DNA from: Desulfarculia bacterium
GTDB lineage: Bacteria; Desulfobacterota; Desulfarculia; G963662305
Assembly: GCA_963662305.1 (NCBI GenBank)
Contig: OY759352.1
Location: forward strand, 2,013,620-2,077,619
Length of the DNA stretch: 64,000 bases
Reading direction: 5' to 3'
Part shown: positions 9,049 through 41,450 of the stretch, piece after piece
Position numbering within the stretch: position 1 is the stretch's first letter
How the letters are laid out: each line of letters starts with the position of its first letter
Notes under the pieces: model-generated
Told to the model about the DNA's origin: nothing
Databases searched by the model: none
The model's input: only the letters and a program-made list of their open reading frames with translations
Translations under genes and position numbers: made by a program

Positions 9049-10242
9049 ATGATCAAAGGGAACCTTTCAACAGTTCGTGAGAACCGAGGTAGACCAGGCA
9101 TGGGGATATTGGTTGAGTGTCCAAACTGCAAGAAGAGGCTATCGGCCTCGGCTACCGTCTGCCAGAGCAGGGGCGGTAAGGGATGCGGTGCAAAGATACC
9201 ACCGGCCCAACGGATATACTGGATCGAATGGATGAACCCGGCCGGGCATAAACGATCCAAGAAAATAGGTCCTAATCGGAAGCTGGCCGAAGACACACTC
9301 TCCAAGCTGAAAAGTGATATTGTCCGGGATGTCTACCTTGACCCCAGGAAGCGGCCGAAGGTCCTGATTGGTGACTTCATCGAGAAGAAATACAAACCCT
9401 GGTGTGAGGCCAATAACAAAGGCTATGCGAACAAGCGCTATTTCATCGACCTGATCAAGAAACGTTGGGGAGGGGTTCTCCTTGATGAACTGAGCATCGA
9501 GGATATAGACCTATACCGGGCCGAGTCGAGCGAGACGGGACGGGTACAGTTTAACCGAGTCCTGGCCACACTCAACCATATGTACACCAAGGCCATTGAG
9601 TACGGCGACGCAGAAAAACATCCTATCCCCACCCTGCTTAAAATGAGGTTCAAGGAGTCTAAGGGCCGGGAAATATTTCTTACCCCGGAGCAAGCAGAAA
9701 CCTTGATTCAGGCCTGCACCGACCACCTCCGCCCCATTGTCATTACCGCCCTTCATACCGGAATGAGAAAAAGCGAGATCCTACAGCTACGGGTTGGGGA
9801 GAACGTAGACCTTGCAGGCAGGCGGATCATTCTGCACGAGGGAATGACCAAGACCGGCCAGCGGCGGGAATTGCCTATTGATGACACCCTTGCAGAGTCC
9901 CTTAAGGGGGTTTTGGCGGGGAAACAGGTGGGAGATTATGTATTCTCCACCAAGGCCGGGAAGCCCTACGGGAACATCAAGAGAGCCTTTGCCTCTGCCA
10001 AGAAAAAAGCTGGGCTGGATGACCTGAGCTTTCACGATCTGCGGCACACCTACGCAAGCCAGCTGGTTATGAGCGGGGTTGACTTGTACGCGGTGGGGCG
10101 GTTATTGGGCCACACAAATGCTAAGATGACCCAGAGATACGCTCACCTGAGCCCCGATTACATGGCCAAGGCGGTATCTGTTCTTGACCGGGTGATGCCC
10201 GGGAAGCCGAAGAGGCCAAACCTGGAGCTGGTCAAGTCGTAG
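9049..10242 (+). CDS. Tyrosine-type site-specific integrase/recombinase
   Basis: C-terminal catalytic signature ...HDLRHTYASQL...LLGHTNAKMTQRYAHL (R..H-x-x-R...Y); N-terminus carries a Cys4 zinc-ribbon-like segment (CPNC...CQSRGGKGC). Confidence 0.9.
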   Translation: MIKGNLSTVRENRGRPGMGILVECPNCKKRLSASATVCQSRGGKGCGAKIPPAQRIYWIEWMNPAGHKRSKKIGPNRKLAEDTLSKLKSDIVRDVYLDPRKRPKVLIGDFIEKKYKPWCEANNKGYANKRYFIDLIKKRWGGVLLDELSIEDIDLYRAESSETGRVQFNRVLATLNHMYTKAIEYGDAEKHPIPTLLKMRFKESKGREIFLTPEQAETLIQACTDHLRPIVITALHTGMRKSEILQLRVGENVDLAGRRIILHEGMTKTGQRRELPIDDTLAESLKGVLAGKQVGDYVFSTKAGKPYGNIKRAFASAKKKAGLDDLSFHDLRHTYASQLVMSGVDLYAVGRLLGHTNAKMTQRYAHLSPDYMAKAVSVLDRVMPGKPKRPNLELVKS

Positions 10243-10370: not shown

Positions 10371-10890
10371 TTTTTAGATAATAATTTGGGGGAGTTAGGA
10401 GATATTTCTGGCTCCCCTTAAATTATTTCTCCTGATAACCATATATAATTATACCCAATTATGGTGGCTGAATATACTGCTATCGCCATCTTAGCGGTCT
10501 GGAACACTATTTTGATGTTCCCCTAAGACCTCCTCCCGGTTCTCTGAAAGAGAGTTGTAACGGGTGAGATAAACCGACTCCAGGGGCGGTCTCAGGTCCG
10601 ATCCGGCATTTTCCCGGGCCAAAAGCAGGGGGGTAAGGCCGAACAGCAGCAGATTTGCCGCCAGAGCGAAAGAAATATCGCTATCCGGATCAGAAAGCGG
10701 ATCACCACTCCGGTGTGGGCGGCCCTGTCCGCCACGATGCCCGCCCCGACCATCAGGCTGGCGGTGGTCGCGGTCTTGGCCCGGCGGTCCAGCCAGGGCT
10801 CCTCCTGGGCCGGGTCTTTGAGGAGGTTTGAAAGGCAGGTCCGAGGGGTTGGGATTTAAGTGCCCTGGAAGGACCGCTCTCGGGGTGGAT

Positions 10891-12087
10891 CTACCGGCTC
10901 TGCAGCTGATCCAGCAGGGCCAATTCGTCTTCAAAGGAGGCCAGGCCCGAATGCCGGCCTGTTTTTAGGCTCAGGACCATGCGCCCCTGGTCCAGAGCCC
11001 GGCGGATGAGGTGCTCCACGGCCCAGGTATCCGGAGCCAGGGGGTAGTCGGCCTGGATCAGGATCTCGGCTTGTTCAATCATCCTCCAGGTCGCCTCGAG
11101 TTTCTCAGGCCCGGCTTCCCTAAAGGGTTCGCAGCCCACAATTCTGGCCCCCACAGCCTGGGCCACCTGAAAATCCAGATCGTGTTTCTGCAGGGGGCCG
11201 GTTAGGATGGGAAAGCCACGCTTGGCCAGGAGCCGGAACAGGCCCGCCCCGGAGCCGCCCCCGGCGGCCACGAACACCTTGGGCCGGCCCAGACGCTCGT
11301 CCGGGTCTTCGCTCTGTTCCAGGACACCCAGCCGGGGGTTGTAGGTGGCCCGTTTCAGCTCAAAGGTCCGGCGGACCGAGTCCTGATCCAGAACCCGCTC
11401 CGGCGGCCCCCAGGCCCTGACCCGGCCGTCTTTGACCAGCGCCACCAGGTCCGAGACCCGGGCCGCCGTGTCCAGGTCGTGGAGGCTGGCGATGATGGTC
11501 AACCCCTCGCGCAGACAGAGCCTTCTCAGAATGCCCATGATCTCCAACCGGTGCTTCAGGTCCAGGTGGATGGTGGGTTCGTCCAGAATGATGATCCGGG
11601 GCGCCTGGGCCAGGGCCCGGGCCAGGAAAATCTTCTGCCGCTCGCCGTCCGAGAGGCGGTCGAAGACCCGGTCGGCCAGCTCCGCCGCGCCCACCAGCTC
11701 CAGGGACCGCTCCACCGCGGCCTTGTCCTCCCGGCTCAGCCGGCCCAGGAGACCGGTGTGGGGATGGCGGCCCAGGCCCACCAGCTGCCAGGCGGTGAGC
11801 AGCCCCAGGCGGGGCCGCTCCGTGAGCACCACGGCCTGGAACCGGGCCAGCTGGGCCTGGCTCAGCCCGGCCAGATCGTGCCCCTCCAGATAGACCGCCC
11901 CCTTGAGGGGCGGCAGGAGCCGGGCCAGGGTCCGCAGCAGGGTGGTCTTGCCCGCTCCGTTGGGGCCCAGCAGAGAGACGAATTGGCCCGGTTCCACGCT
12001 CAGGTCGATCCGGCCTATAACCTCCCTGGTTCCGTATCCCACGGAGAGGTTTTCTATCTTTATCAACGGGATATCCGCGGTGCTCAA
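10891..12087 (-). CDS. ABC transporter ATP-binding protein (Fe3+-siderophore/B12/heme importer type) with ~140-aa C-terminal extension
   Basis: Walker A GPNGAGKTT, signature LSDGERQ, Walker B IIILDEPT, H-loop; the N-terminal part of ORF 10891-12546 is a spurious extension; start assigned to TTG at 12087 (GGAG 9 nt upstream) overlapping the permease stop. Confidence 0.8.
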   Translation of the reverse strand: MSTADIPLIKIENLSVGYGTREVIGRIDLSVEPGQFVSLLGPNGAGKTTLLRTLARLLPPLKGAVYLEGHDLAGLSQAQLARFQAVVLTERPRLGLLTAWQLVGLGRHPHTGLLGRLSREDKAAVERSLELVGAAELADRVFDRLSDGERQKIFLARALAQAPRIIILDEPTIHLDLKHRLEIMGILRRLCLREGLTIIASLHDLDTAARVSDLVALVKDGRVRAWGPPERVLDQDSVRRTFELKRATYNPRLGVLEQSEDPDERLGRPKVFVAAGGGSGAGLFRLLAKRGFPILTGPLQKHDLDFQVAQAVGARIVGCEPFREAGPEKLEATWRMIEQAEILIQADYPLAPDTWAVEHLIRRALDQGRMVLSLKTGRHSGLASFEDELALLDQLQSR

Positions 12088-13100
12088 AACGACTTGCTCC
12101 GTCTGATCAGCAGCCCGATGACGATGGGCGCCCCGAAAAAGGCGGTCACGGCCGAAAGGGGCGTCTCCACCGGGGAGAAGAGCATCCGGGCGATAAGGTC
12201 GCACAGCCCGGTGACGATGCCGCCGATAAGGGCCGTGATGGGGATGAGGAGGCGGTTGTCCGCCCCGGACAGGCTCAGCCGGGCGATGTGGGGCACGGCC
12301 AGGCCGATGAAGGCCACCGGACCGGCCGTGGAGGTGACCAGGGCGGCCAGGCCGCAGGCCAGGAAGACCACGGCCACCCGGAAGAAGCGGACGTTGACCC
12401 CCATGGTGGCGGCGTACTCCTCGCCCATGAGAAAGGCGTTGAGCTGCTTGGCCAGCAGAAAGGCGCCCAGCATCAAAGCCCCGCCCCCGATGACCACGGC
12501 CCCCACCTCGGACCAGCGGTATCCGGCGAAACTGCCCAGGGTCCACAGCTTGAACCCCTTGATCTTCTCCGCGTCGGCAAAGGCGATGAGGATGGCCGTG
12601 ACCGCATTGGCCAGATAGCCGATCATCAACCCGGTGATGAGCAGGGTCACCCCGCCCGAGACCCGGGTGGCGATGAGGGTCACGGCCAGCATGGCCGCCA
12701 CGGCCCCCACAAAGGCGGCTCCGGTGGTCAGAAAAGGCCCCAGGGCGGTGAAGCCCACGGCCGCGGTGGTGAGCATGACCAGCCCCACCATGAGGGTCGC
12801 CCCGGAGGAGATTCCCAGAATAAAGGGCCCCACAATGGGATTGCGGAAAAAAACCTGGAGCAGCAGCCCGGCCACGGCCAGGCAGGCCCCGCCCCAGGTG
12901 GCGGCCACGGCCCGGGGCAGCCGGATCTTCCAGACGATGAAGCCATAAGTATCCTCCGGCCCCTCCATCCCGTTAAACACGGTGGCCATGATCTTGGCCA
13001 GGGGGATATCCAGGGAACCGATGACCAGATTCAGATAGAAACTGGCCACCAGCCCCAGGGAGCAGAACAGAAAGAGGAGTTTTGTTCTTCGGGCGGACAT
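12084..13100 (-). CDS. FecCD-family ABC importer permease (BtuC/FhuB/HmuU-like)
   Basis: 338 aa, multi-TM, typical FecCD sequence pattern (LLAGxxLALAGxxLQ, GxxxFIGLxxPHIARxL). Confidence 0.85.
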   Translation of the reverse strand: MSARRTKLLFLFCSLGLVASFYLNLVIGSLDIPLAKIMATVFNGMEGPEDTYGFIVWKIRLPRAVAATWGGACLAVAGLLLQVFFRNPIVGPFILGISSGATLMVGLVMLTTAAVGFTALGPFLTTGAAFVGAVAAMLAVTLIATRVSGGVTLLITGLMIGYLANAVTAILIAFADAEKIKGFKLWTLGSFAGYRWSEVGAVVIGGGALMLGAFLLAKQLNAFLMGEEYAATMGVNVRFFRVAVVFLACGLAALVTSTAGPVAFIGLAVPHIARLSLSGADNRLLIPITALIGGIVTGLCDLIARMLFSPVETPLSAVTAFFGAPIVIGLLIRRSKSF

Positions 13101-13103
13101 TTC

Positions 13104-14177
13104 TCAACGGTCCTTGAGCTGGAGGAAATAACGGAGTTTATGGTCCGGGAACAGTTCCGGGTGGATGATGGCGGCCAACTCCCTTATCACCCGGTCCATC
13201 TCCCCGGCCGACTGATAGTAGACCGCCTGGGGCACGAACATCCTTCCTTTAGTCATGGGCCTGATCCCGGCCAGCATGGGGTTGACCCGGGCCAGATCGG
13301 CCTTGGAATGGATGCCCGTCTTGTCCGATCTATAGGTGAACATGACATCCGCCTTGCGTCCGCTGGAGAAGAACCTCTCCAGTGTTACCTCCAGTCAGGA
13401 GGAGCCGGCGATGTCGTCGAACAGATAATCGCCGCCCACGGCCTTGATCAGCTGGGCCGCCCAGGAGTGGCCCGGCTCCACCAGGACCCGTTTCTCGTAG
13501 ATGTCGCCCCAGATGGCCTTGGGCCGACGATCAGCTTTCTTGGTTACGGCCCTTACCTCCTCCAGGACCGCCATGGACCGCTCCACGAACTCCAGGGCCC
13601 GCTCCTGTGCCCCGAAAAAGGGGGCCAGGAACCGGGTCAGGTTGATGTAGGTCTCCAAATCGGCCGCGGTCTCGCCGTAGGTGATCACCGTGGGGATGCC
13701 CAGCTCGCTCATCTTGGGGATGATGGACTCGTCCCAGGTCAAAACCAGCTCCGGCTTGAGCCGGATCAGCTTCTCCAGGTCTATGCTGGAGCTCAAACCC
13801 AGACCGGCCACCCGGCCCGAGGCCAACCCCTCCGCCACCTGGGGCAGGGTCCAGTCCTCAGGGTGGCCGGTGACGCCCACAATGGCTCCGGCCGCGCCCA
13901 GGACGTCCAGGAACGAAGCGTCCCGGCCCGAGTAGACCACCGCCCTCTCCACCGGAATGCGGACCACCTCATCCGGGGCCAGGCCCGGAGGAACCTCCCG
14001 GTCCCGGGGAACCAGGGTCAGCATCCGGCCCAGCCCGTCGGTGAGTTCATACAGGCCTTGGTCCAGGGAACGGACCGAGAACTCGCCCAGGACCAGGAAG
14101 TCCTCGCCCCTGGCGGGCCAGGGAAAGGAGGCGACCAGAAATAAGAGGATGAGAAGATGTATTTTAAGCCGGCCCAT
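13104..14177 (-). CDS. Periplasmic substrate-binding protein of iron-siderophore/B12/heme ABC importer; reading frame interrupted by a single in-frame TGA at 13395-13397 (candidate Sec codon or nonsense mutation)
   Basis: ORFs 13395-14177 and 13104-13343 are in the same frame (coordinates congruent mod 3) separated by one TGA; joined product ~357 aa with signal peptide and two-lobe PBP-like sequence. Confidence 0.65.
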
Positions 14178-15003
14178 GGGCTTGCTCCTTTGGTCCGCTC
14201 CGGGCGTTTTTTCTGAGGGTCTGGATCAGGTAGCCGGTCAGCCCCAGCACGAACAGGCCCACCCCGGCGAAGAATCCGCCCACGCCCGGGTCCTTCCTGA
14301 CGATCAGGTTGGCCCAGCCGGGCCGCCCGGCCCGGTTCCTGGTCTGGGGCTGGTAGTTTTTGATGTGCACGCTGAAACCCCGGTAGCGGACCGGTTTGTT
14401 GATGCCCAAATGCCGGACCGTCTCCCGGCCCCGTGGGTCGGTGAAGGCCAGGGTCAGGTCCTGATCAATGGCCCGGTTTTCGAAAAAGGAGAGGCGGCGG
14501 CCCTGGTAGTACTCCACCTCCATCTTTTCCAGGCGGAGCCGGTGGCCGGTTTGGGCCAGATCCACGGTTCGGCCCGGGGAGAGGATGTTGTTGCGCAGAT
14601 TGACCCCCACCACGTAGCTGGCCAGCATGGAGACCAGCAGGACCAGGAAGGCTAGGTGCATCAGGTGGGGCGAGAAGCGGAGCAGGTAGTCCAGCCGGCC
14701 GGTCTCCCCGGAGCGGATGCGGATCAGCCCGGCCACCCGGTTGATGGTGCAGACCGAGGTGTTGAGCACCAGGAGGAGCATGAGCCCCATGAAGACGAAG
14801 AACCACCAGGTCTCGGCCAGATGGAACCGGCCGTAGGTGGTTATCCAGTCCCACAGCATGAGCCGGTCCAGGGGGCCGAAGAGCTGGGGCTCGGCTCTAA
14901 AATGAAAGAACCCGGCGCACAAATCCGCCACCAGGGCCAGGAGGACATAGAGGGTCAGGTCGGCCCGGCCCAAAAAACTCCAGATCGCCTTGGCAGCCCT
15001 CAT
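14164..15003 (-). CDS. Membrane protein, ResB/Ccs1-like (cytochrome c biogenesis-type)
   Basis: Real start at MRAAKAIW (ATG 15003, ATGA overlap with upstream stop); the N-terminal 89 aa of ORF 14164-15270 are spurious; several TM segments; family assignment tentative. Confidence 0.45.
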   Translation of the reverse strand: MRAAKAIWSFLGRADLTLYVLLALVADLCAGFFHFRAEPQLFGPLDRLMLWDWITTYGRFHLAETWWFFVFMGLMLLLVLNTSVCTINRVAGLIRIRSGETGRLDYLLRFSPHLMHLAFLVLLVSMLASYVVGVNLRNNILSPGRTVDLAQTGHRLRLEKMEVEYYQGRRLSFFENRAIDQDLTLAFTDPRGRETVRHLGINKPVRYRGFSVHIKNYQPQTRNRAGRPGWANLIVRKDPGVGGFFAGVGLFVLGLTGYLIQTLRKNARSGPKEQAHGPA

Positions 15004-15767
15004 ATCAGGAACCTGGGCATGAGGAACTGCCCGGTCTCGGGCAGGTAGGCGAAATAGAAAAGCAGGGCCAGCCCGGCCAGGGCGAACCAGGCCTGCCGGC
15101 CCAGGGACCAGCTCTGGAGCAGATAGAGGTGCAGAAAGGCGCCGTAATAGAACCACACGGCCATGACCGAGGTCATGATGTACTCCCGCCAGACCACCGG
15201 GCTGGTCCAGCCCAGATAGGACCAGGTGTCGGCCGCAAACAGGGACAGGGTGAAGGAGATGAAGCCCCACACGGCCAACCGGCCGAAAAGGCGGGGCCGC
15301 AGGGGCCTGACCCCTTTTTTGCGGCGGCGCAGAAACAGGGCCGCCTCCACCCCGGCGGCGCAGAACAGGGCCTTGCCCAGTCCGCTCAAAAGGACCATTA
15401 GATGGGCGAACACGGTCCTGGAGCGGGGAAAGGGGAGGTAGTCGCTCTTGGGGAACAGGGCCGTGTACAGGGCCAGAAAGGCGATCACAGGGAGCAGCCC
15501 TCGGACCAGATCCCGCTTCCCGGACAGGAGCACCCCCAAACCCAGCCCGGCCAGGCAGAGGACCAGCCAGAAGGGCTCCTGGTGGGGGGCCTGCATGGGC
15601 CAGGAGCCGTAAAGCTTGATCCCCACCGAGGCCAGGTTGGCCGAGAACCCCAGGGCCAGGAGCAAACCCGACAAACGTTCAAAGCGTAGCGCGGCCAGGG
15701 CCAGCACATAGAACCCGGCGGCCAGGTAAAAGGCGTTGAGGGTCCACTGGTTCAGGAGCAGGGTCAC
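15000..15767 (-). CDS. Membrane protein, cytochrome c assembly (CcsA/CcmC-like) family
   Basis: 255 aa polytopic protein with Trp-rich segment DTWSYLGWTSPVVW resembling the WWD heme-handling motif; tentative. Confidence 0.45.
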   Translation of the reverse strand: MTLLLNQWTLNAFYLAAGFYVLALAALRFERLSGLLLALGFSANLASVGIKLYGSWPMQAPHQEPFWLVLCLAGLGLGVLLSGKRDLVRGLLPVIAFLALYTALFPKSDYLPFPRSRTVFAHLMVLLSGLGKALFCAAGVEAALFLRRRKKGVRPLRPRLFGRLAVWGFISFTLSLFAADTWSYLGWTSPVVWREYIMTSVMAVWFYYGAFLHLYLLQSWSLGRQAWFALAGLALLFYFAYLPETGQFLMPRFLI

Positions 15768-18142: not shown

Positions 18143-21100
18143 TCACTTCCCCGAGGCGGACCTATCCTCCAGGCGCCAGCCCCGCTGCCATTTCTCCACC
18201 TGGTCCGCGGTGAGGACCTCCACCTGGGAGCCCTGAAACTCGCCCTCCACCCGGCCCATGGACTCCTCCATGTCGCCCTCCACATCTAGGGAGGCGGACT
18301 GGATCCGGGCCAGGACCTCCGGGTCCGGGGACCACAGCCCCCGGGAGGCGGCCTCCAGGAGCCGCCGGGTGATCTCCTCCAGGGCATAGGGGTTCTCCTG
18401 GCGGAGCCAGGCCAGGTTGTATCGGTCCAGGATCAGCTTCCCGGCCAGGGCGTCCAGGATACGGCCCTCCACCTGCCCGGTGGTGGCCGACCACTTGAAC
18501 AGGCTGCTCACCTGGGCCATGACCCTGGCCGCGCCCTGGAAGCCCTCCTTTTTCATGGCCTCGATCCAGTTCTGGTTGAGGACCTTGGCCCGGGCCGAGG
18601 CCTCCAGGCTTTCCCGGAAGTCCCGGACCTGGGGCTTGCCGGCCGAGGGGTCGTCCATCCAGTAGAGCCGGGCCTTTTTGCCGGAAAGGGCCTCCGCAGC
18701 CACGGCCATGCCGCCCAGAAAGGAGGCGTAGCAGCCGCACCCGGTCAGGTCGTACTCCGGGGAGTACTGGCGCATGGCCGTCACGTCCACCTGGGCCAGC
18801 ATGGCCGCAAAGTGATCCTGGGCCAACTGGCCGTGGTCGTCTCCGGACCCCAGGGCGTAGCCGCCGTGCTCGATGTAGGTCTCGGCCAGTTCGGTGCGCT
18901 CGTTCCAGGCCGAGGCGTCCAGGACCAGCCCCACCCCCAGGGTGTGGCTTCCGGGACGGGCCGAAAAGACCCGGTACCCGGCCCGGCGGAACAGCCCGGC
19001 CGACTGCCCCTCCATCTCCTCTTCCAGGGCGGCCAGCCGCTCCAGGGTGTGGGCCCGGATGTGGTTGTTCTGGAGATCTTCGTCCAGCTCCGAGGCGGCC
19101 AGGGCGGCCCGGTCGATCAGGTCGATGAAGTTGGGCAGCATGTCCCGGACCAGGCTGCTGGTCTGGACCACCACGTCGACGCGGGGCCGGGGGTTTCCGT
19201 CCAGGAGCAGCTCGGCCAGTGGAAGAGGCTCCACCTTCCGGCACTGCCCGTCCCCCTCCCAAACCGGTTTGAAGCCCATGAGATAAAGAATCTGGCAGCA
19301 GACTTCGCCGTCGGACTTGAACCCGTCGGAACTCCACAGGCTCAGCCCCACGGTGCGGGGGAAGGAGCCCTCGTCGGACAGGTATTTGCGCAGGAGGCGG
19401 TCGGCCAAATCCCGGCCCGCGGCCCAGGCCGCCTGGGTGGGCAGCCGGGTCACGTCCAGGCCGAAGAAGTTGCGTCCTGTGGGCAGGGTCTGGGTCTGGC
19501 CCATGAGCAGGGACCCGGCCGGGCCCGGCGGGATGAAGCCACCCCGAAGGCCGTGGAGCAGGGCCGCCATCTCCTGGTCGGAGCGGGCCAGCAGCCCGGC
19601 CGTCTCGCGGCACCACCCCCGCAAGGCTTGTCCTTCCTCCCCGGGCCAGAGAGCTTCCCAGTCCGCCTCGCTCCCTTCCAGAGCGGTCCGGACTACCTCC
19701 CCGGCCCGGTCGAACTGCTCTCCCCGTGAGGTTCCATGATCGGCCACCTCCTCCAGGGAGGGCCGCCCGGGCGATTCCCGGCGGAGGATGGAGGTAAGCA
19801 TCATCACCGTCTCCTCCAGGTCCGGGCCCCGGCCCAGGCAGTGCAGGCCGGTGGGGGCCAGGGTCTGTTTGGCCTGGGCCAGGGCCCGGGCGGCCAGGTC
19901 CAGGGTCTCCTCCTCCCGGTCGGAGCCCGGCTCCACCTCCTCCGCCTTGGCCCGGAAAAATCCCAGCCTGGCCAGCAGAGGCCGCAGCTCCCGGGCCAGG
20001 TCGGCCGCCCGGGCCGGTTCGTCCATGGCCCTGGCCCGCTGGTACTGGACCAGGAGGTCCTCCGTCCGGGCCGCCTCCCCATCCAGGAGGGCGGGGCGAA
20101 AGGCCGGGCCCAGGTGGTCCACCAGCACGGCCCGGCCCCGCCGCTTGGCGATCAAGCCCTCGCCCACCACGTCCATGATGTAGAGGTAGAGGTTGGGCAG
20201 CCCGTTTAAGGTTATATCCGGGAAGCACCGCTCCGAGAGCCCGCCCCGCTTTCCGGGCAGGTATTCCAGGGCCCCTTCGCAGCCGAAGTGGATCACCGCG
20301 TCCGAGGTCCGGTCGATGTAATGGTAGGTGGCCAGCCAGTGGTGGGGCGGGCTGATCAGGGGGTCGTGGAGGATGCGGCAGACCTCGCCGTTGCACTTGG
20401 CCCCGTAGCAGCCCCGCTTGGGCTGGACCATGACTTTGGTCTTGCCCAGTTGAATCCCCGTGACCAGGAGGGTCGGCTCCCCCTCCCGCTCATAGACCAT
20501 GGCCTCTCCCGGGAACTGGTCCCAGTCTTCATTGACCTTGGCCCGGACCGGTTCCGGCAGGGTCTCTTGATAGGCTTGGTACTCCTCCCGGGTGGTGTAG
20601 TGAAGGACCCCGCCCTTGGTGACGATCTCGTCCGGAGTGGTCCAGCGAAATTCGCTCACGGCCTTGCGGGAGAGGATCAGCGCCTTGAGCTCCGCCCCGT
20701 CGGCGGGCGGATGGCCCACGTCGTAGCCCTCCCGGTCCATGGCCCGGAGCAGCCGGGCCAGGCTGTCGAACACGTTGAGCCCCACCCCGGTGCCGATGGT
20801 GGCCTCCACCCCCTGACAAGGCGCGTTGTGGAGAACCACGGTCACCCGCTTGTCCTGGTTGGGCTTCCGGGCTAGGGCCAGCCAGCGCCCCAGCCTGCGG
20901 CAGAGCAGCTCGATCCGCTCCGGGATGGGCTCGTAGCACAAGGCCTCGTTGCCGGGCCTGCGGGCGGCGAAGACCGTGGGTTCGATAGCTCCGGCCATCT
21001 CCGGCTGGGCCAGGCCGTAGACCAGGGAGGCGGCGTTGAGCCCATACCCGTCCTCCAGCCATTCCTTAGGCGTCTGGTGGTGCACCCGGATCAGCTGGAT

Positions 21101-21886
21101 CAGGGGCCGGTCCAGCTCCTTTAAAAGCCCGATCTCGTCCTCCTGGGAGAGGAACCGGGCCGCCAGCAGGTTCAGCAACGCCGCCGGTTTTTCCCCCGAA
21201 TCCAGGAAATTGCGGAACCAGGAATGGCGCTTATCCGGCGGCTCCCCGGTCTCGGACGGGCTCTCGCAGAAGACGCACAAAGGCCGGAACCCATGCTCCT
21301 CCAGGGCCAGGATAAGGGCCTCTATCTCGGCCGTGTTGCCCTCCGCCACCTGGGCGTAGTGGCAGACCAGGCCGATCAGGGGCCGGCCGGGGTCCAGACC
21401 CCGGTCCAGGGCCAGCCAGCGAAGGTACTCCTTCCGGTCAATAAAAACCTTATCAGCGGCCGGGTGGAAGATACCTTCGGTTTGCACCTCCTGGGGGGGC
21501 TGGTAGTCGGTATCCGCCCCGCAGGCCGAGGCCGCGAACCTGATCCCGTGGAGGTAGTTCTCCTCCGAGACCCTGGCCAGATAGGCCCGGAACAGGGCCA
21601 GGTCCTGGGCGGAGAGGCTGGACCATCCGGCCGGGATGTCCTGGCCCAACCCGATCCGGTGGGCCGCCCGGTCCGCCTGTTCCATGATCTGGGCGAACCC
21701 CTCCTGGCCCTGGGACAGCTCGGCCAGGAGCAGATCCACCCGCCCCGAGGCCAGTTCCTCGGCGGCCTTCTCCCATTTCAGCTGGGGGATGAGGACCAGG
21801 TCCAATCCTTCCCCGGCCAGCCGCTTTGCGACCCTGGCCCAGGTGAGCTGGTTGAACATGAGGGAATGGACGTAGATAATTCTCAT
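18143..21886 (-). CDS. CobN/Mg-chelatase large-subunit family protein (paralog 1)
   Basis: 1247 aa; CobN/ChlH-type conserved blocks throughout (e.g. LHYIDRTSDAVIHFGCEGALEYLPGK, GFIPPGPAGSLLMGQTQTLPTGRNFFG). Confidence 0.85.
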   Translation of the reverse strand: MRIIYVHSLMFNQLTWARVAKRLAGEGLDLVLIPQLKWEKAAEELASGRVDLLLAELSQGQEGFAQIMEQADRAAHRIGLGQDIPAGWSSLSAQDLALFRAYLARVSEENYLHGIRFAASACGADTDYQPPQEVQTEGIFHPAADKVFIDRKEYLRWLALDRGLDPGRPLIGLVCHYAQVAEGNTAEIEALILALEEHGFRPLCVFCESPSETGEPPDKRHSWFRNFLDSGEKPAALLNLLAARFLSQEDEIGLLKELDRPLIQLIRVHHQTPKEWLEDGYGLNAASLVYGLAQPEMAGAIEPTVFAARRPGNEALCYEPIPERIELLCRRLGRWLALARKPNQDKRVTVVLHNAPCQGVEATIGTGVGLNVFDSLARLLRAMDREGYDVGHPPADGAELKALILSRKAVSEFRWTTPDEIVTKGGVLHYTTREEYQAYQETLPEPVRAKVNEDWDQFPGEAMVYEREGEPTLLVTGIQLGKTKVMVQPKRGCYGAKCNGEVCRILHDPLISPPHHWLATYHYIDRTSDAVIHFGCEGALEYLPGKRGGLSERCFPDITLNGLPNLYLYIMDVVGEGLIAKRRGRAVLVDHLGPAFRPALLDGEAARTEDLLVQYQRARAMDEPARAADLARELRPLLARLGFFRAKAEEVEPGSDREEETLDLAARALAQAKQTLAPTGLHCLGRGPDLEETVMMLTSILRRESPGRPSLEEVADHGTSRGEQFDRAGEVVRTALEGSEADWEALWPGEEGQALRGWCRETAGLLARSDQEMAALLHGLRGGFIPPGPAGSLLMGQTQTLPTGRNFFGLDVTRLPTQAAWAAGRDLADRLLRKYLSDEGSFPRTVGLSLWSSDGFKSDGEVCCQILYLMGFKPVWEGDGQCRKVEPLPLAELLLDGNPRPRVDVVVQTSSLVRDMLPNFIDLIDRAALAASELDEDLQNNHIRAHTLERLAALEEEMEGQSAGLFRRAGYRVFSARPGSHTLGVGLVLDASAWNERTELAETYIEHGGYALGSGDDHGQLAQDHFAAMLAQVDVTAMRQYSPEYDLTGCGCYASFLGGMAVAAEALSGKKARLYWMDDPSAGKPQVRDFRESLEASARAKVLNQNWIEAMKKEGFQGAARVMAQVSSLFKWSATTGQVEGRILDALAGKLILDRYNLAWLRQENPYALEEITRRLLEAASRGLWSPDPEVLARIQSASLDVEGDMEESMGRVEGEFQGSQVEVLTADQVEKWQRGWRLEDRSASGK

Positions 21887-21957
21887 GGCTGTTCTCCCCA
21901 GCGGGCCGAGGGCTTATAATGGCCCCCATGGACTCCGCACCTGAGAGGATTGAACAA

Positions 21958-23136
21958 ATGATTCTGGGCACCTTTTACGATTCCCTGGAGATCCGCCGGG
22001 AGGAGAAGATCATCCTGGCCAGGTTTCTGGAGCCCCACCGGGTCGTCTCCACCTGCCGGGCCGCGGGCGGGATCTCCGACCGGCTGGACTTCGTCTACAA
22101 CCACCAGGTCTGCGAACCCACCAACCACACCCACGGCCTGCCGCCCTCGGCTTTGTCCGACCCCCTGGCCTATCGGGAGCTGATCTGCGGCCGCCACAAT
22201 CTTCCCCCGGACAAGTGCGCCACCTGCGGCACCGCGGCCAACATGAACCAGGCCGCCTTGGTCTCGGAGAAGTTCCGCGACCTGGAGGTGGTGGCCCTGT
22301 GCACAGGCGGGGTGGAGACCAACGCCGGCCGGGTGGGCGATCCGGCCACGGTCTTCGAGGGCCCGGAGGGGTTCGAGAAGCTGGGCCCGGCCGACCCGCC
22401 GGGGGAGGGGACCATCGTGACCATGGTCTTCATCAGCCGGGAACTGGTCCCCGGGGCCATGGTCCGGGCGGTGATGACCGCCACCGAGGCCAAGACCGCC
22501 GTACTCCAGGAACTGGGCGTGGGCTCCTGCTACTCGGACGGCCCGGCCACGGGCACGGGCACGGACCAGATCGTGGTGGCCAGCCGGTTGGGAGAGGGAA
22601 AGCCCCTGACCTGCGCGGGCAAACACTGCACCTTGGGAGAGCTTATCGGCCGGGCGGTCCAGAAGGCCATCGCCCAGGCCCTGGCCGCCCAGAACGGCCT
22701 CACCCCGGCCCGGCAGTGCTCGGTCACGGCCCACCTGGCCCGTTTGGGGGCCGGCCGGGAGTCTCTGATAAAGGGCGTGGGGGCCCATCTGGACGAGAGC
22801 GGAAAACAACTCCTGGCCGACAACTGGGACTGCCTGGACACCGACCCCCTGACCGTGGCCGCGGCGGCGGCCCTGGTCCATCTGCGGGACAAGCTGGCCT
22901 GGGGGGCCCTCTCCCCGGAGGTCCGGCCCGAGGTGCTGGTCTCCTTCGGGGCCCAGCTCTCCGCCGCCGTGTCGGGCAAGAACGGGCTTCTGCCCTGGTT
23001 CAATGAACAGCTGAGCCGAACCCGGCCCGGAGAATCCAACCGGGACTTTCTGAAGCTGGTCCACCGGGCCCTGGGCCTGGGCTTCGGCCGCAAGTGGCTC
23101 TGGCCCGGGGAAGGGGAGCCCGGGGCGGCGGCTTAA
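21958..23136 (+). CDS. CbiZ-like adenosylcobinamide amidohydrolase family protein
   Basis: Sequence blocks VVSTCRAAGG, VALCTGGVETNAG, TGTGTDQIVVA resemble CbiZ; start placed at internal ATG (MILGTFYD); the long antisense ORF 21883-23160 is low-complexity and rejected. Confidence 0.5.
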   Translation: MILGTFYDSLEIRREEKIILARFLEPHRVVSTCRAAGGISDRLDFVYNHQVCEPTNHTHGLPPSALSDPLAYRELICGRHNLPPDKCATCGTAANMNQAALVSEKFRDLEVVALCTGGVETNAGRVGDPATVFEGPEGFEKLGPADPPGEGTIVTMVFISRELVPGAMVRAVMTATEAKTAVLQELGVGSCYSDGPATGTGTDQIVVASRLGEGKPLTCAGKHCTLGELIGRAVQKAIAQALAAQNGLTPARQCSVTAHLARLGAGRESLIKGVGAHLDESGKQLLADNWDCLDTDPLTVAAAAALVHLRDKLAWGALSPEVRPEVLVSFGAQLSAAVSGKNGLLPWFNEQLSRTRPGESNRDFLKLVHRALGLGFGRKWLWPGEGEPGAAA

Positions 23137-23166
23137 GCAATATGGCGGCTTACCTTTCATCAGTCC

Positions 23167-24951
23167 TCAAAAGGAGTAAATCATTCCGGCCATGAGGGTG
23201 AAGGGCGGGGCCGGATAGCCGTCGCAGTAGAGGTATTCCCGGTCCAGAAGGTTATCTATGCGCAGGTACGCTCGCCAGCCCTCCCAGACATATTCGGCCC
23301 GCAGGTCGAAGAGGTGATAGGAGGGGGCGGTCTCGGTGTTGTCCGAACGGGAATAGGATTCGTCCTGAAAGGTGAAGGACAGGGCCACCATCAACCGCTT
23401 CAGGGGCCGGAGCCGCAGGTCGGCCTTAATTTTGTGCTTGGGCTTGCACGACAACCACAGATCGTTGGTCTCGTCCCGGGCCTCCAGATAGGTATAGGAG
23501 CCGTGCAGCTCCAGCCAGTCCCAGGGTTTGAATTCCAGGGAGGCGTCCACTCCGCGATAGTAGGCCCGGCCGATGTTCCGGTACTGGCCCAGGTTGCCCT
23601 CGGTGTTGATGTAGGTTATGCGGTCGTCGATGAGGTCGTAGAACAGGGAGGCCCCCATGCGGAACATCTTGGAGGGTTCATAGGCCGCCCGGAGGCTCAG
23701 GTTGACGGACTGCTCCATGTCCAGGTCCGGATTGGGGATCAGGGTGGAGCTCTCGTAGTAACGTTGCCTTAAAGTGGGCACATTGTTGGACATGGAGGCC
23801 GAAAAAATGAACTCCAGGGGCGCGGGGGCGTGGCGGACCTGCAGCTCCGGGTTCACCGCCGCATCGAACTCGGAATATAAGCTGGCCCTGAGCCCCAGGC
23901 TGACCCCCAAGGGGGCGAAATCGAACTCCAGCTGCTTCTTGGCGAACAGCCCCAGGGTCTGCTCGTCCCGGTTCTCCATCTTGTTGCCCTGGCCGTGGAT
24001 GTTCTCCGTCTCCAGTCCCAGGGAGAGACGCCCCACCAGGGGCAGCCCCACCTGGGCCCGGACATCCTGCTTCACCTTCCAGCCGGTCATGAGGGTCCGG
24101 TAGTCCGCCCCCTCGGTCCAGGAATCGTTCTCAAAGTGGAGATAGTGGGTCCCGGCCTTGATCTTTTTCCAGCCGTAGGCCAGGGAGGCCCGCAGGGTCT
24201 CGTCCCGGGAGCGGGAATCCGGGGTGGGATACTCCCGGTAACCCGGGTTGCCACTGGTCCGTTTGGCGTAATCCAGGGACAGGACCACGGGCTGCCAGGC
24301 GGTTTTCCCGGCCGGGGAGGCGTCGCCCTCCCCTTCCGGGGGCGCGCTGAAGTCGTAGCCCGCCTTGAACCCGGCCTGGACGGTCTCCTTGTCCCCGTTG
24401 TTGCGGTACCCGTCGGTGCGGCAGTACTCCCCGCTGGCGGCCAGGGACCAGGGCCCGGCCGAGGCGGACAGGTTGGCCCCGGCCTTGGCCGAGCCCAGGT
24501 TGCCGCCGCCGGCCTCGATCCGGCCGCTGACCGCCTTCTTGGTCTTCTTGGTGTAGAACAGGACCACCCCTCCGGAGCTGTCGTCGCCGTAGTCCACGGC
24601 CCCGCCGCCCTTGATGATCTTCACCTTTTCCAGGCTGGCCAGGTTGACCAACCCCAGCTTGACCTCGCTGTGGGAGGAGACCGGGTTCTTCAGGGGCGCG
24701 CCGTCCAGGAAGACCTTCACCGCATAGGAGCCCCGGATGCCCACCGTGGTCTCCGAGGCCTTGACCCCGGGGACCAGGTTCAGCAGCTCCACCACGGAGT
24801 AGACGTTGAGCTTCTTTATCTCCTGGGCGGTTATGACCACCACGTCGCCGTGGTCCTGGTCTTCTTCCCCGGCCACGGCCGGAAAGGTCGAGCCGAACAG
24901 AAAGAAAGTTGCCAGCAGAGCCGAGATAAAGAGCGTGGATTTCTCGAACAT
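23167..24951 (-). CDS. TonB-dependent outer-membrane receptor
   Basis: Start at MFEKSTLFISALLATFFLFG (signal peptide); plug-domain motifs (VVVITAQEI, VPGV, IRG), beta-barrel region, C-terminal aromatic residue (F). Confidence 0.85.
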   Translation of the reverse strand: MFEKSTLFISALLATFFLFGSTFPAVAGEEDQDHGDVVVITAQEIKKLNVYSVVELLNLVPGVKASETTVGIRGSYAVKVFLDGAPLKNPVSSHSEVKLGLVNLASLEKVKIIKGGGAVDYGDDSSGGVVLFYTKKTKKAVSGRIEAGGGNLGSAKAGANLSASAGPWSLAASGEYCRTDGYRNNGDKETVQAGFKAGYDFSAPPEGEGDASPAGKTAWQPVVLSLDYAKRTSGNPGYREYPTPDSRSRDETLRASLAYGWKKIKAGTHYLHFENDSWTEGADYRTLMTGWKVKQDVRAQVGLPLVGRLSLGLETENIHGQGNKMENRDEQTLGLFAKKQLEFDFAPLGVSLGLRASLYSEFDAAVNPELQVRHAPAPLEFIFSASMSNNVPTLRQRYYESSTLIPNPDLDMEQSVNLSLRAAYEPSKMFRMGASLFYDLIDDRITYINTEGNLGQYRNIGRAYYRGVDASLEFKPWDWLELHGSYTYLEARDETNDLWLSCKPKHKIKADLRLRPLKRLMVALSFTFQDESYSRSDNTETAPSYHLFDLRAEYVWEGWRAYLRIDNLLDREYLYCDGYPAPPFTLMAGMIYSF

Positions 24952-24962
24952 ATATTCCCCCC

Positions 24963-27900
24963 TCAGCCAATTCCGTCCTCGATGTCGCCTTCGATGTCCA
25001 GATAGATGGATTCCAGCCGTTCCTTGGTTTCCTGGTCGGTGTTCCACATCTCCCGGCTGATGGCCTCCAGGAGGCGTTCGGCGATGTTCTGAAGGGCGTG
25101 GGGGTTGACCTCCTTGAGCCATTCCCGCATCTTGGGATCAAAGGCGTATTTCTCGGCCAGGCCCTCGTACATCCAGTCCTCCAGGACCTTGGAGGTGGCG
25201 TCCCAGTGAAAGGCGTTGTCCACCTGGCGGGAGAGATCCCCGGCCCCCTTGAACCCGTGTCGCATGAGGCCCTCGATCCACTTGGGGTTGAGGATGCGGG
25301 AGCGGAAGACGTGCTTGGCCTCCTGGTGGAGGGAGCGGTTCTTGACCCGCTCCGGATCCGAGGCGTCGCCGATGTAGGCCCGGGGCAGACTCCCGGAAGT
25401 GGTTTTGACCGCGCAGAAGAACCCCCCGAAGTAGGCGTTGTAGTCGTCCGAGCCCAGGATGTCGTACTCCCGGGAGTCGTCGCTCTTGAACAGGAGCTTG
25501 ATGTCGGAAAGCCTGCGGCGCAGTTCGTCCTTCATGGGGGCGCCGTATTCGCCCTGGCCGTAGCCGTACCCGGCCCAGGACAGCCAGACCTCGGTCAGGT
25601 CCTCGGCCGTCTCCCAGGCCTTGGCGTCGATGGCTGCGGCCACCCCGGCCCCGTAGGTCCCGGGCGGGTCGGAGTAGATCCGGAAGGAGGCCTTGCGGAC
25701 CGCGTCCTCGGGGCTGAGCCCCTGCTTCTCCAGCTCGGCCGCCTCCCGCATCACGTTGCGCCGCAGGAAGTTGGACTCGGGCGGCTCCTTGAGGGCGGCC
25801 ACCATGCGGGCCGCCTGGTCCAGCATCTCCATTAAATTCGGGAAAACATCCCGAAAAAGCCCGGTGGTGCGGAAGGTGATGTCGATGCGGGGGAACTTCA
25901 GCTCCGCCAGGGGGATCACCTCCACCCCCTCCACCCGGCCGCTGCGCTCGTTCCAGACCGGCCGCAGACCCATCATGTACAGGGCCTGGGCCAGTTCCTC
26001 CCCGTGGGTCCTCATGTTGGAGGTGGCCCAGATGAGCATGCCCACGTTGTCCGGCGGGGAGCCGGTCTCCCGGCGGTAGCGCTCCACCAGGTCGTCGCCC
26101 AGGGCCTTCCCCACCTTCCAGGCCGAGGTGGTGGGCAGCTTCTGGGGGTCCACCGAGTAGAAGTTGCGGCCCGTGGGCAGGACATCGGTCTGGCCCCGGG
26201 TGGGCGCGCCCGTGGGTCCGGGGCGGACGAATCCGCCGTTGAGGGCATGAACCACGGCCTCCATCTCGTCCGTGGTCCGGGCCAAATTGGGCAGCAGGGT
26301 CTCCTTGAGAAACTCGACCACCTTGCCTATCCCGGGATTTTCCCTTGCCAGGGGGTGCTCCCGGCCGGCGATTGTGGCGGCCACGATCTCCATGCAGGTC
26401 CGGTGGACCGCCTCCAGGACCGTGGCATAGGTGGGGTGTCTACCGGAAGGATCGGCCTTGCCCCGCTGGGCCAGGAGTTCGTCATAGTCGTAGCCCCAGT
26501 GCCGGGCCACAGACTCCCGCAAGGAGGGCACCGGGCCGTTGTTGATCCGGACCATCTGGGTGGTGAGCTCGGTGAGCGCGTCCCCCTGGGGCGGAATACC
26601 CAGGATGTGGAGCCCGTCGGAGATGGCCGTGTCCGCGCACTCGCTCAAATAGGAGTGGAGCTTCTCCAGGAACTCCTCGAAGTTGTCCAGGGCCTGGTCC
26701 TTTTCCATCTCCAGGTCCCGCTGGAGATTGGCCTGTTCCACGGCCTCCCAGATCTGGTCCCGGACCACGGGCAGCCGGGTGGGGTTGGTGGCCTTGGTCT
26801 GAATATACTGGAGGACCAGGTTGTCCACCTCGGCCAGGCCCTCGTATTTTTCGGCGTTGGTCATCACCGGGATAAGGTGGTCGATCAGGGCGCAGTAGGA
26901 GCGCCGCTTGGCCTGGGTGCCTTCTCCTGGGTCGTTGACGATGTAGGGGTAGATGTTGGGCAGGGTGTTGATGGCCAGATCCGGGTAGCACTCCGGACCC
27001 AGGGCCACGCTCTTGCCGGGCAGCCACTCCAGGGAGCCGTGCTTGGCGATGTGCATCACCGCATCGGCCTGGAACACGTCCCTGATCCAGCGGTAGTAAT
27101 AGAGATAGTGCCAGGAGGGGGACATGTAGGGGTCGTGGATCATCTCCGGCCGCTCCACAAAACCCCGGGGCGGCTGGATGCCCACGTAGACGTTGCCCAG
27201 GATCAGTCCGTTGATCAGAACCTGGTCCTCGTGAACGAACAGCTCGCCCGGGCTCTCCCCCCAGTCCTCGGCCATGGCCCGGGTGTTCTTTTCCGGTAAC
27301 TCCTTGTTCCAGGCCTGGTGGTGGATTGCTCCGGCCCGGTCAGCGGCCCGGGCGGCCATGTCCGCCGGGGTGAGCCAGCGCTGGTCCACGGACAGCCCGG
27401 CCACCATGGCCTCGGCCAGCTCCTGGCAATCTGCCAGGGAATGCTCCACCCCGTAGCCCTCCTCCTTGAGCCTGCCCAACAGGTCGAACACGCTGGCGAA
27501 CGTGTCCAGGCCCACTCCGCAGCCGATCTTGTCGTTGCGGGGCGGGTAGTTGTGGAAAATGATGGCCACCTTCTTTTCGGAGTTGGGCTTGATCCGAAGC
27601 CGGGCCCAGTTGATCGCCAGGGCCGCCGCCTTGCCGATCCGCTCGGGCAGGGGCACGCTCCGGACCAGCTTGGCCCCGGTAAGGGGGTCCTGGCCCAGAT
27701 CCTCCTTGACCGAGGAGGGCACGGCGATGAGGTTGCCGTCGAACTCGGGCGCGGCCACGGACATGCTCACGTCCATGGGGTTCACGGCCTGATCCGTGGT
27801 CTCCCAGAACTCCTTGTCCGAGGTCAGGGGCATGGCCTGGAGCACGGGCACGTCCAGCTTGTTCAAAAGGGCCGCCTCCTGGGGCCGGAGCAGGGACAGG

Positions 27901-28685: not shown

Positions 28686-28687
28686 AA

Positions 28688-32805: not shown

Positions 32806-32807
32806 GC

Positions 32808-41174: not shown

Positions 41175-41294
41175 GCACCCAGCTTACTTGGTCTCCCCAA
41201 AGGCGCTTTTAATTATCTAAACAGCGCCCGGCCTCGGTCCGGTCTTTCGCCGGCCTTGGTTATGAGCAGATGGCGGGTCTTCTGACTCCCGGAT

Positions 41295-41450
41295 CATCCT
41301 CCGGCCGCCCCTTCCCGCCGCCTTTTTTGACGGCAGTGGCTTATCGCGACCTTTGTCCCCGGTTACAGCGGCGGGACCGTGCCGGACTTGCACCGGCTTC
41401 CCCATTGAGCCTTACGGCACCGATCTACATTATGCCTCTACTAATAAAGG
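41295..41450 (-). promoter_or_regulatory. Cobalamin (AdoCbl) riboswitch aptamer
   Basis: Minus-strand RNA reads ...AAUGGGGAAGCCGGUGCAAGUCCGGCACGGUCCCGCCGCUGUAACCGGGGACAAAGGUCGCGAUAAGCCACUGCCGUCAAAAAAGGCGGCGGGAAGGGG..., matching the conserved cobalamin-riboswitch core (GGGAA..CCGGUG..AAGUCCGG..CCCGCC.CUGU...GCCACUG...GGGAAGG, i.e. the B12 box). Confidence 0.8.

Follow-up and report, generated by a model that had tools for sequence, protein, structure and literature searches.

A putative selenoprotein as the periplasmic binding protein of a vitamin B12-regulon ABC importer in a Desulfarculia bacterium

Introduction

Selenocysteine (Sec) in the substrate-binding proteins of ATP-binding cassette (ABC) transporters was first described in 2022-2023, for SaoB and SaoX (Haft & Gwadz, bioRxiv 10.1101/2022.07.06.499078; J Bacteriol 2023), and recent catalogues include a selenoprotein named "Cobalamin-binding protein BtuF" with a CxxU motif. 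In BtuF itself, cobalamin and cobinamide are contacted by six cavity residues, among them Trp196 (PMC5269720), which belongs to the C-lobe and is turned toward the beta face of the corrin (PMC5269720; PMC5662663). In another transport protein, BtuM, the cobalt of vitamin B12 is ligated through a Cys (PMC6072759). This study concerns a minus-strand gene for a periplasmic substrate-binding protein, interrupted at codon 261 by an in-frame TGA, on contig OY759352.1 of a Desulfarculia bacterium (assembly GCA_963662305.1). The stretch analysed, positions 2,013,620 to 2,077,619 of the contig (64,000 nucleotides), is referred to below as the window, and positions are given within it. Judged from sequence comparison, the gene very probably encodes a true selenoprotein, which serves a type-II (FecCD/BtuC-like) ABC importer of the vitamin B12 regulon as its periplasmic substrate-binding protein.

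Results

A TGA codon pairs with Cys across the binding-protein family

The gene is made up of two minus-strand open reading frames (ORFs), at 14177-13395 (260 codons) and 13343-13104 (79 codons), which lie in one frame with a single TGA between them; its terminal stop, at 13106-13104, is also a TGA. A preliminary description of this DNA had pointed out the shared frame and the lone TGA at 13395-13397, and had read the joined translation as one continuous binding protein. ORF calls and translation agreed on both counts. The joined product reads DDIAGSS-(stop)-LEVTLERFFSSGRKADVMFTYRSDK, and the Pfam domain Peripla_BP_2 (PF01497) was found to cover residues 80-312, across the stop, with 67 bits against a cut-off of 27.5. 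The joined product also aligned over its full length with 24 Cys-form homologs. The candidate Sec at residue 261 is the sole Cys/Sec of the protein, which means that it is not half of a CxxU-type redox pair. In the public gene calls, the gene appears as two unnamed fragments of 260 aa and 79 aa. Against NCBIfam, the protein gave only a weak partial match to BtuF at E <= 0.01, and no model recognised the family.

A protein search returned 222 homologs. Apart from the window's own product, the three closest (66-72% identity) were all approximately 260-269 aa long, and more distant ones were full length. In all 24 aligned full-length homologs the TGA column was occupied by Cys, within the motif GTSC[LI]E[IV]sLERF. 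Two of the short products stopped exactly at DIAGSS, and the DNA of one of them, locus L001, was found to match the window in its TGA, in the in-frame continuation and in the downstream hairpin. The third short product (P0013/L002) resulted from an IS200/IS605 insertion and was uninformative on the TGA. In this ortholog, which is 71% identical, the gene is cut by an IS200/IS605-type (Y1_Tnp) element at L002 6760-7282, eight codons before the Sec codon; this copy, in contrast to the window gene, is truly a pseudogene.

The column was then scored in a scan with one genome per species, which gave 80 loci, with L082 not scored. TGA was found in 15 loci and TGC or TGT in 64 (65 gene copies). The 15 species-representative genomes together with L001 made up 16 independent TGA loci, the window's own genome not being counted, so that over 81 loci the codon was TGC/TGT in 65 and TGA in 16. 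No TAA, TAG or non-Cys sense codon was observed at the site in any locus. An alignment of orthologs had been named as a check in the preliminary description, with non-Cys sense codons and an unconserved hairpin as the outcome that would speak against Sec; the opposite was found, the column being Cys or TGA only. The TGA loci ranged down to approximately 45% protein identity, always with the TGA in frame, and included the cultured isolate Dethiosulfatarculus sandiegensis SPR. The TGA was also present in L083, which is another, independent assembly of the organism of the window.

In every TGA locus the frame continued after the TGA for 86-109 codons. The dN/dS ratio (nonsynonymous to synonymous substitution rates) was 0.11-0.43 after the TGA, compared with 0.08-0.45 in the 200 codons before it, and purifying selection was thus the same downstream as upstream. 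The residue at position -3 of Sec was Gly in all 17 Sec forms (GSSU, GTSU, GDTU, GASU and others), the window motif being GSSU. Two of the loci carrying this bacterial gene were from archaeal metagenome-assembled genome (MAG) contigs, namely L022 (a 1-kb contig, "Methanocaldococcaceae archaeon") and L052 ("Promethearchaeota archaeon"). L022 was essentially identical to L014 of a Desulfohalobiaceae MAG, and both contigs are probably binning contamination rather than archaeal homologs.

A SECIS-type hairpin co-occurs with the TGA

Downstream of the TGA, a hairpin was found that starts at the 13th nucleotide after it (12 nt between), with a UGA-to-loop spacing of 20 nt and a possible additional C-G pair at 13384/13361. 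The 8-bp hairpin that the preliminary description had placed 13 nt downstream, at 13363-13382, was reproduced by folding, with a GUUC loop and -9.9 kcal/mol. The published consensus for the bacterial Sec insertion sequence (SECIS) comprises a loop of 3-9 nt with G in the first two loop positions, a stem of 4-16 bp, a UGA-loop spacing of 16-37 nt and a minimum free energy (MFE) of <= -7.5 kcal/mol (PMC13188914). The window hairpin falls within all four constraints, with its 4-nt loop beginning with G, 8 bp, 20 nt and -9.9 kcal/mol.

Across genomes, the hairpin followed the TGA. When the stem was scored in fixed register, the 16 Sec forms paired at 7-8 of 8 positions (mean, -8.9 kcal/mol), whereas the 63 Cys forms formed a mean of 4.1 pairs (-1.8 kcal/mol); the Mann-Whitney p was 1.6e-9, without phylogenetic correction. 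When the consensus constraints were applied in a register-free scan, 11/16 Sec forms passed compared with 5/63 Cys forms (Fisher p = 1.5e-6), and at -6.0 kcal/mol 15/16 Sec forms passed. Within the Sec forms, 96.7% of stem cells were paired, compared with at most 66.7% in slid registers, and one stem pair was cleanly compensatory (AU in nine, GC in six, none broken). The MFE of the 48 nt after the codon was also tried as a discriminator of Sec and Cys forms and was rejected; it gave no separation (p = 0.07) and is confounded by GC content, and the fixed-register and consensus-constraint tests were used for this reason.

The requirement for pairing was also visible in the coding sequence. Sec forms carried AGG or AAG for the Arg/Lys codon and encoded F[FL]SS, whereas Cys forms mostly carried CGN and encoded FLYSG, which argues that both coding sequence and codon choice were bent toward the stem in the Sec forms. 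The clearest case was the pair L035 (TGA) and L054 (TGC), 96% identical over 141 nt and both encoding VERFLYSG. GAG-AGG in L035 completes an 8-bp stem with a GGUU loop, whereas GAA-CGG in L054 breaks it, through synonymous changes. These sister genes (L035 3049 and L054 6717) form a natural Sec/Cys switch pair suited to experiments.

Known selenoprotein genes elsewhere in the window

The preliminary description had also named HdrA and MvhD as further UGA-containing selenoprotein genes of the window, and a TGA was indeed found at the known site of each. In HdrA, an in-frame TGA at 61487-61485(-) lies within TNDCSM-U-ILSPK, at the classic Cys/Sec site, and in the MvhD/VhuD-like protein one at 58469-58467(-) lies within FLCHW-U-AYGAAD, at the classic Sec site. 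Both UGAs provide indirect support, at the level of sequence, that the organism probably decodes Sec. The HdrA gene is followed by a hairpin with the same layout as that of the binding-protein gene (8-bp stem, 4-nt AGGU loop, starting 17 nt from the U of the UGA). A candidate hairpin of MvhD (CUGGA-GUU-UCCAG) resembles that of the binding-protein gene but is weak (-6.5 kcal/mol) and is not the MFE structure, and it was not used as evidence. Gene callers would split both the HdrA and the MvhD genes.

No tRNA-Sec was found by ARAGORN within the 64-kb window. The program did report a 97-nt "tRNA-Arg(gcg)" at 32505-32601(-), inside a ChlD-like ORF; this is not a tRNA-Sec and is probably a false positive.

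The candidate Sec aligns with a ligand-contact residue of BtuF

An AlphaFold2 (AF2) model was made of the Cys-form homolog P0002, not of the window protein, with a predicted local distance difference test score (pLDDT) of 93.6 and a detached N-terminal helix. A Foldseek comparison of this model with the PDB gave 188 matches at E <= 0.001, and the 50 listed were class-III binding proteins. The fold was tried as a guide to ligand identity and discarded, since binders of different cargo score alike.

Profile alignment (hhalign) with E. coli BtuF, at a probability of 93.7%, placed the Cys/Sec column on Trp196, three residues before a V-[ST]-x-E motif. The position is Trp in the closest solved homolog, 4OVK, and Tyr in a second, canonical BtuF-like binding protein encoded in the window. 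It therefore appears that an invariant thiol/selenol has taken the place of an aromatic residue in contact with the ligand. The six aromatic contacts of BtuF (Y50, W66, W85, F162, F168 and W196) are not conserved as a set. W85 is kept as an invariant Trp, W196 is Sec/Cys, F162 is Pro, W66 falls at a variable column, the Phe168 segment is deleted and the Y50 region was unaligned. The family has no invariant His, and Trp, Tyr and Phe are frequent among the residues that never vary.

Sec and Cys forms are distributed in deep clades

In a neighbour-joining tree, all Sec forms but one fell in a single deep clade of 24 sequences, with pairwise identity down to approximately 45% and three small Cys subclades nested within it. 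The remaining Sec form, L035, is a separate event in a large, otherwise Cys-only clade. In the Cys-only clade a second near-invariant Cys (52/55) was found in the N-lobe motif VAMCL (approximately window residue 174); in the Sec-containing clade this column holds Asp, Asn or Thr. Ligand binding may therefore differ between the two clades.

The transporter cassette is linked to cobalamin riboswitches

The binding-protein gene is the third of five tightly coupled minus-strand genes (Table 1), and this five-gene cassette was found around Sec and Cys forms alike in approximately 90% of 77 loci. The ATPase has as its best NCBIfam match the "corrinoid ABC transporter ATPase" PRK09536, below the model cut-off. 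Its C-terminal 145 aa or so (10891-11325) are conserved and without a Pfam match; they occur in approximately 75% of homologous loci, and the PRK09536 profile also covers part of them. The start codon of the ResB-like gene (ATG, 15003-15001) overlaps the stop of the CcsA-like gene (ATGA), and its 3' end overlaps the start of the binding-protein gene. The CcsA-like/ResB-like pair, homologues of the heme handlers of System II cytochrome c biogenesis, is thus translationally coupled to the transporter genes. CobN was encoded within 6 kb in approximately 60% of the 77 loci and a radical SAM protein in approximately 36%. A literature search for a cassette combining CobN, CcsA/ResB and an ABC transporter found nothing relevant.

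In the window, the studied transporter ends a minus-strand cluster of approximately 30 kb headed by a cobalamin riboswitch, which also contains genes for two TonB-dependent receptors, a canonical BtuF-like transporter, ChlI, ChlD, a radical SAM protein and two CobN paralogues. In other genomes the riboswitch was closer. RF00174 was found upstream on the same strand in 16 of 26 scanned loci (10/15 Sec and 6/11 sampled Cys forms), at approximately 2 kb where CcsA/ResB-like genes intervene and up to approximately 4.3 kb with further genes. In L014 and L029, which are without CcsA/ResB-like genes, it lies directly in front of the binding-protein gene, at approximately 400 nt. This linkage in other genomes indicates that the transporter belongs to the B12 regulon.

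Table 1. Features of the binding-protein locus and its regulatory setting, in window coordinates
Feature	Position	Strand	Remarks
Gene for class-III periplasmic substrate-binding protein, putatively Sec-containing; complete	13104..14177	(-)	357 aa including candidate Sec261
Candidate Sec codon (UGA, codon 261)	13395..13397	(-)	Aligned to invariant Cys of homologs
Probable N-terminal export signal (MGRLKIHLLILLFLVASFPWPARG)	14106..14177	(-)	Predicted from the sequence; detached N-terminal helix in the AF2 model of a homolog
Candidate bacterial SECIS-type hairpin, CUGGAGAGGUUCUUCUCCAG	13363..13382	(-)	8-bp stem, GUUC loop, -9.9 kcal/mol
CcsA-like (Cytochrom_C_asm) membrane protein, first cassette gene	15000..15767	(-)	PF01578; 65/77 loci
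ResB-like membrane protein	14164..15003	(-)	PF05140; 71/77 loci
FecCD-family permease	12084..13100	(-)	PF01032, E = 3.6e-74; adjoins binding-protein gene in 72/77 loci
ABC ATPase	10891..12090	(-)	C-terminal extension of ~145 aa; ATPase in 70/77 loci
Cobalamin riboswitch	41255..41440	(-)	RF00174, 109.7 bits; head of ~30-kb minus-strand cluster

Other features of the cluster were noted. The canonical BtuF-like binding protein is encoded at 36247-37287(-) and matches the BtuF equivalog with E = 3.9e-18; with Tyr where the studied protein has the candidate Sec, the cluster would hold two chemically different sites. The two CobN paralogues and the ChlI-like, ChlD-like and radical SAM genes lie within 18143-33012(-), an unexpected setting for class I chelatase genes; the host looks like an anaerobic sulfate-reducer relative. 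Just past the transporter operon, a phage-type integrase gene at 9049-10242(+) and a strong terminator-like hairpin at 10388-10418 were found, possibly at the edge of a mobile element or genomic island.

Discussion

A predicted route from UGA to ligand

The Sec reading put forward in the preliminary description is strongly favoured by these data, which add what was not seen there, namely membership of the B12 regulon and a predicted ligand-contact position for Sec. On this reading, the hairpin 12 nt past UGA-261 would act as a SECIS, recruiting SelB with Sec-tRNA(Sec), and Sec would be inserted at UGA-261 in place of termination, after which the full-length protein of 357 residues would be exported. 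Sec261 would then lie on the C-lobe wall of the ligand cleft, at the position of BtuF Trp196, where it would most likely serve as a soft selenolate ligand or a nucleophile toward the cargo. By analogy to the Cys-Co ligation in BtuM, the cargo would most plausibly be corrinoid cobalt. Under Se scarcity, termination at UGA-261 would be expected to yield a truncated, presumably inactive protein, which would couple the supply of Se to the uptake route.

A more specific proposal, which is put forward only tentatively and with some doubt, is that Sec261 (Cys in paralogous clades) serves as an axial ligand to the cobalt of the incoming corrinoid and that the CcsA/ResB-like pair forms an associated tetrapyrrole-handling membrane module. 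If so, a periplasmic binding protein would form a biological Co-Se bond, by which corrinoids would be captured whatever their lower ligand and perhaps stripped of their upper one. We know of no selenium-cobalt coordination in biology so far, and this would be the first.

Observations that weigh against the interpretation

Several observations count against the interpretation as a SECIS-directed selenoprotein of the B12 regulon. None of selA, selB, selC and selD was found within the 64-kb window. Taken alone, the window hairpin is only modestly unusual (20-mer z = -2.2, with 6/200 shuffles folding equally well), and the 58-nt stretch around it is no better than shuffled sequence (z = -0.4); its significance must therefore come from comparison across genomes. 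In that comparison, most Sec forms come from one clade and the contrasts between Sec and Cys forms are not phylogeny-corrected. The Sec forms show modest covariation, since the stem falls on codons of a conserved peptide. The stem is also kept by L004 and L007, which are Cys forms nested within the Sec group, and in L007 the loop G is changed to A; this looks like a fossil SECIS after reversion from Sec to Cys. Rfam gave no SECIS-type match, either at the gathering threshold over the window or at E <= 10 in the local region, where the sole match was RAGATH-21, by chance; Rfam is unusable as a test for a bacterial SECIS here.

With respect to the ligand and the regulon, the riboswitch of the window lies 26 kb upstream of the binding-protein gene, and the BtuF equivalog NF002894 gave a partial match of 18.5 bits against a cut-off of 234. 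The Foldseek neighbours bind siderophores, heme, B12 and Ni-His with indistinguishable scores, at a template modelling (TM) score of approximately 0.6 and 14-20% identity. The placement of the Cys/Sec in the cleft comes from a profile alignment, not from coordinates.

Alternative explanations

The alternative that survives best concerns the ligand. Instead of a corrinoid, the selenoprotein could bind Co(II), in free form or as a chelate, or a different soft metal, in the manner of CbtJKL, and feed the CobN chelatases. Although CbtJ is similar to BtuF, Co(II) is the cargo of CbtJKL, which is controlled by an adenosylcobalamin (AdoCbl) riboswitch (PMC7689651), and a lone Cys/Sec would be a good ligand for a soft metal. 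The residues of the family point the other way, with no invariant His and with the Trp/Tyr/Phe-rich invariant set better suited to a large hydrophobic ligand; the equivalent of BtuF Trp85 is retained as an invariant Trp, although the region of BtuF Phe168 is deleted. The gene neighbourhood is divided in the same way. For the Co(II) reading, CobN, ChlI and ChlD genes flank the cassette and a canonical BtuF-like transporter is already present in the window; against it, TonB-dependent receptors are encoded in the same cluster and the ATPase is matched best by an ATPase of corrinoid transport. The neighbouring CobN chelatases are compatible with the corrinoid and the Co(II) readings alike. Overall, a Co(II)-type ligand is considered rather unlikely, though a serious alternative.

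A second alternative is that the UGA is read through with a standard amino acid (by a near-cognate Trp or Cys tRNA or by other recoding) instead of Sec. Leaky readthrough of UGA occurs in bacteria, and Sec at residue 261 is predicted from sequence. Such readthrough would leave unexplained why the site pairs exclusively with Cys, the signature that defines selenoproteins (PMC9312934), and why the hairpin fits the SelB-type SECIS consensus in the same format as the HdrA element. With two known selenoprotein genes within the same window as well, readthrough with a standard amino acid is judged very improbable.

The chance appears slimmer still that the TGA is a real stop in a split gene, giving a truncated 260-aa protein and possibly a separate 79-aa product from the ATG at 13343. 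This ATG does open the second ORF, and TGA is also used as an ordinary stop in the genome, including as the terminator of this gene at 13106-13104. However, the 17 codons from the TGA to ATG 13343 (LEVTLERFFSSGRKADV) are conserved at the protein level with Cys-form homologs, and the Met at 13343 lies inside the conserved motif ADVMFTY, at a column where homologs have I, L or M. A split there would cut the C-lobe of the predicted fold in the AF2 model, and the hairpin co-varies with the TGA.

Least probable of all, and effectively excluded, is a pseudogene whose TGA arose by recent nonsense mutation or through an error of sequencing or assembly: a lone in-frame stop is typical of a fresh nonsense mutation, the gene callers give products of 260 aa and 79 aa and the ortholog L002 is truly disrupted by an insertion sequence (IS) element, but the same TGA recurs in the independent assembly L083 and in 16 other loci down to approximately 45% protein identity, the codons on both sides of it are under equal purifying selection and the site is never TAA, TAG or a non-Cys sense codon. 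Neither a recent nonsense mutation nor a sequencing error nor a split gene can account for the conservation of the TGA and the dN/dS pattern. The preliminary description had held mutation or error to be equally possible, and this does not stand in view of the Cys/TGA pairing in 81 loci, the 16 TGA loci, the selection downstream and the co-occurrence of the hairpin.

Implications

A selenoprotein of this kind would add a non-redox, lone-Sec family to a selenoproteome catalogue dominated by CxxU-type oxidoreductases. As gene callers split the gene, at least 15 species-level genomes lack the transporter in their annotation or have it scored as a pseudogene. The L035/L054 pair, together with the apparent fossil hairpins of L004 and L007, would illustrate the gain and loss of a SECIS within a constrained coding sequence. 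An invariant Cys/Sec at a predicted corrin-contact position in a riboswitch-controlled importer points to an uncharacterised anaerobic route for the acquisition of corrinoid or cobalt, for which thiolate/selenolate ligation of cobalt is a directly testable hypothesis. If the axial-ligand proposal is true, selenium status would be tied to B12 acquisition in sulfate-reducing Desulfobacterota.

Comparison with known systems

The E. coli BtuF/BtuFCD system (PDB 1N2Z, 1N4A) shares with the studied transporter the Peripla_BP_2 domain, the two-lobe class-III fold and a FecCD/BtuC-type permease with an ABC ATPase. Homologous cassettes of the studied family are likewise found under a cobalamin riboswitch, and BtuF Trp85 corresponds to its invariant Trp. 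The relation to BtuF is nevertheless remote (18.5 bits against 234). Trp196 is exchanged for Sec/Cys, the Phe168 loop is missing and the window protein is approximately 90 residues longer and is encoded together with CcsA-like and ResB-like membrane proteins. CbtJKL of Sinorhizobium meliloti is similar by its description, with a BtuF-like binding protein, a FecCD-type transporter and an AdoCbl riboswitch (PMC7689651). It differs in its substrate, Co(II), and Sec and CcsA-like or ResB-like partners have not been reported for it.

BtuM of Thiobacillus denitrificans, also a transport protein, places a Cys thiolate on the cobalt of B12 and decyanates the vitamin (PMC6072759). Its membrane fold, of the energy-coupling factor (ECF) S-component type, is unrelated and no Sec variants have been reported, so that the analogy would be mechanistic only.

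Among Sec-containing proteins, the catalogued BtuF CxxU selenoprotein is, like the window protein, a member of the BtuF/TroA-like binding-protein superfamily. The window family has Gly at position -3 and the window protein has no Cys, so that the Sec context at least differs from that of the catalogued protein, although the two families may overlap. The studied family was not found in current catalogues, the BtuF CxxU entry having been compared by its motif. SaoB and SaoX resemble the window protein in having Sec in a predicted ligand pocket, probably as a metal ligand, and in being split in two by gene callers. They differ in belonging to another class of binding protein (relatives of PDB 3VVE and 4ZV2), in their CU/CC motifs, in the SAO locus and in the type of permease, and the NCBIfam models of SaoB/SaoX (NF040727, NF040735) gave no match to the window protein. 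Sec-containing binding proteins of transporters are therefore a known kind, to which the window family adds. Its unusual traits are the lone, non-redox Sec, the predicted corrin-contact position and the B12-riboswitch cassette with cytochrome-c-biogenesis-like proteins.

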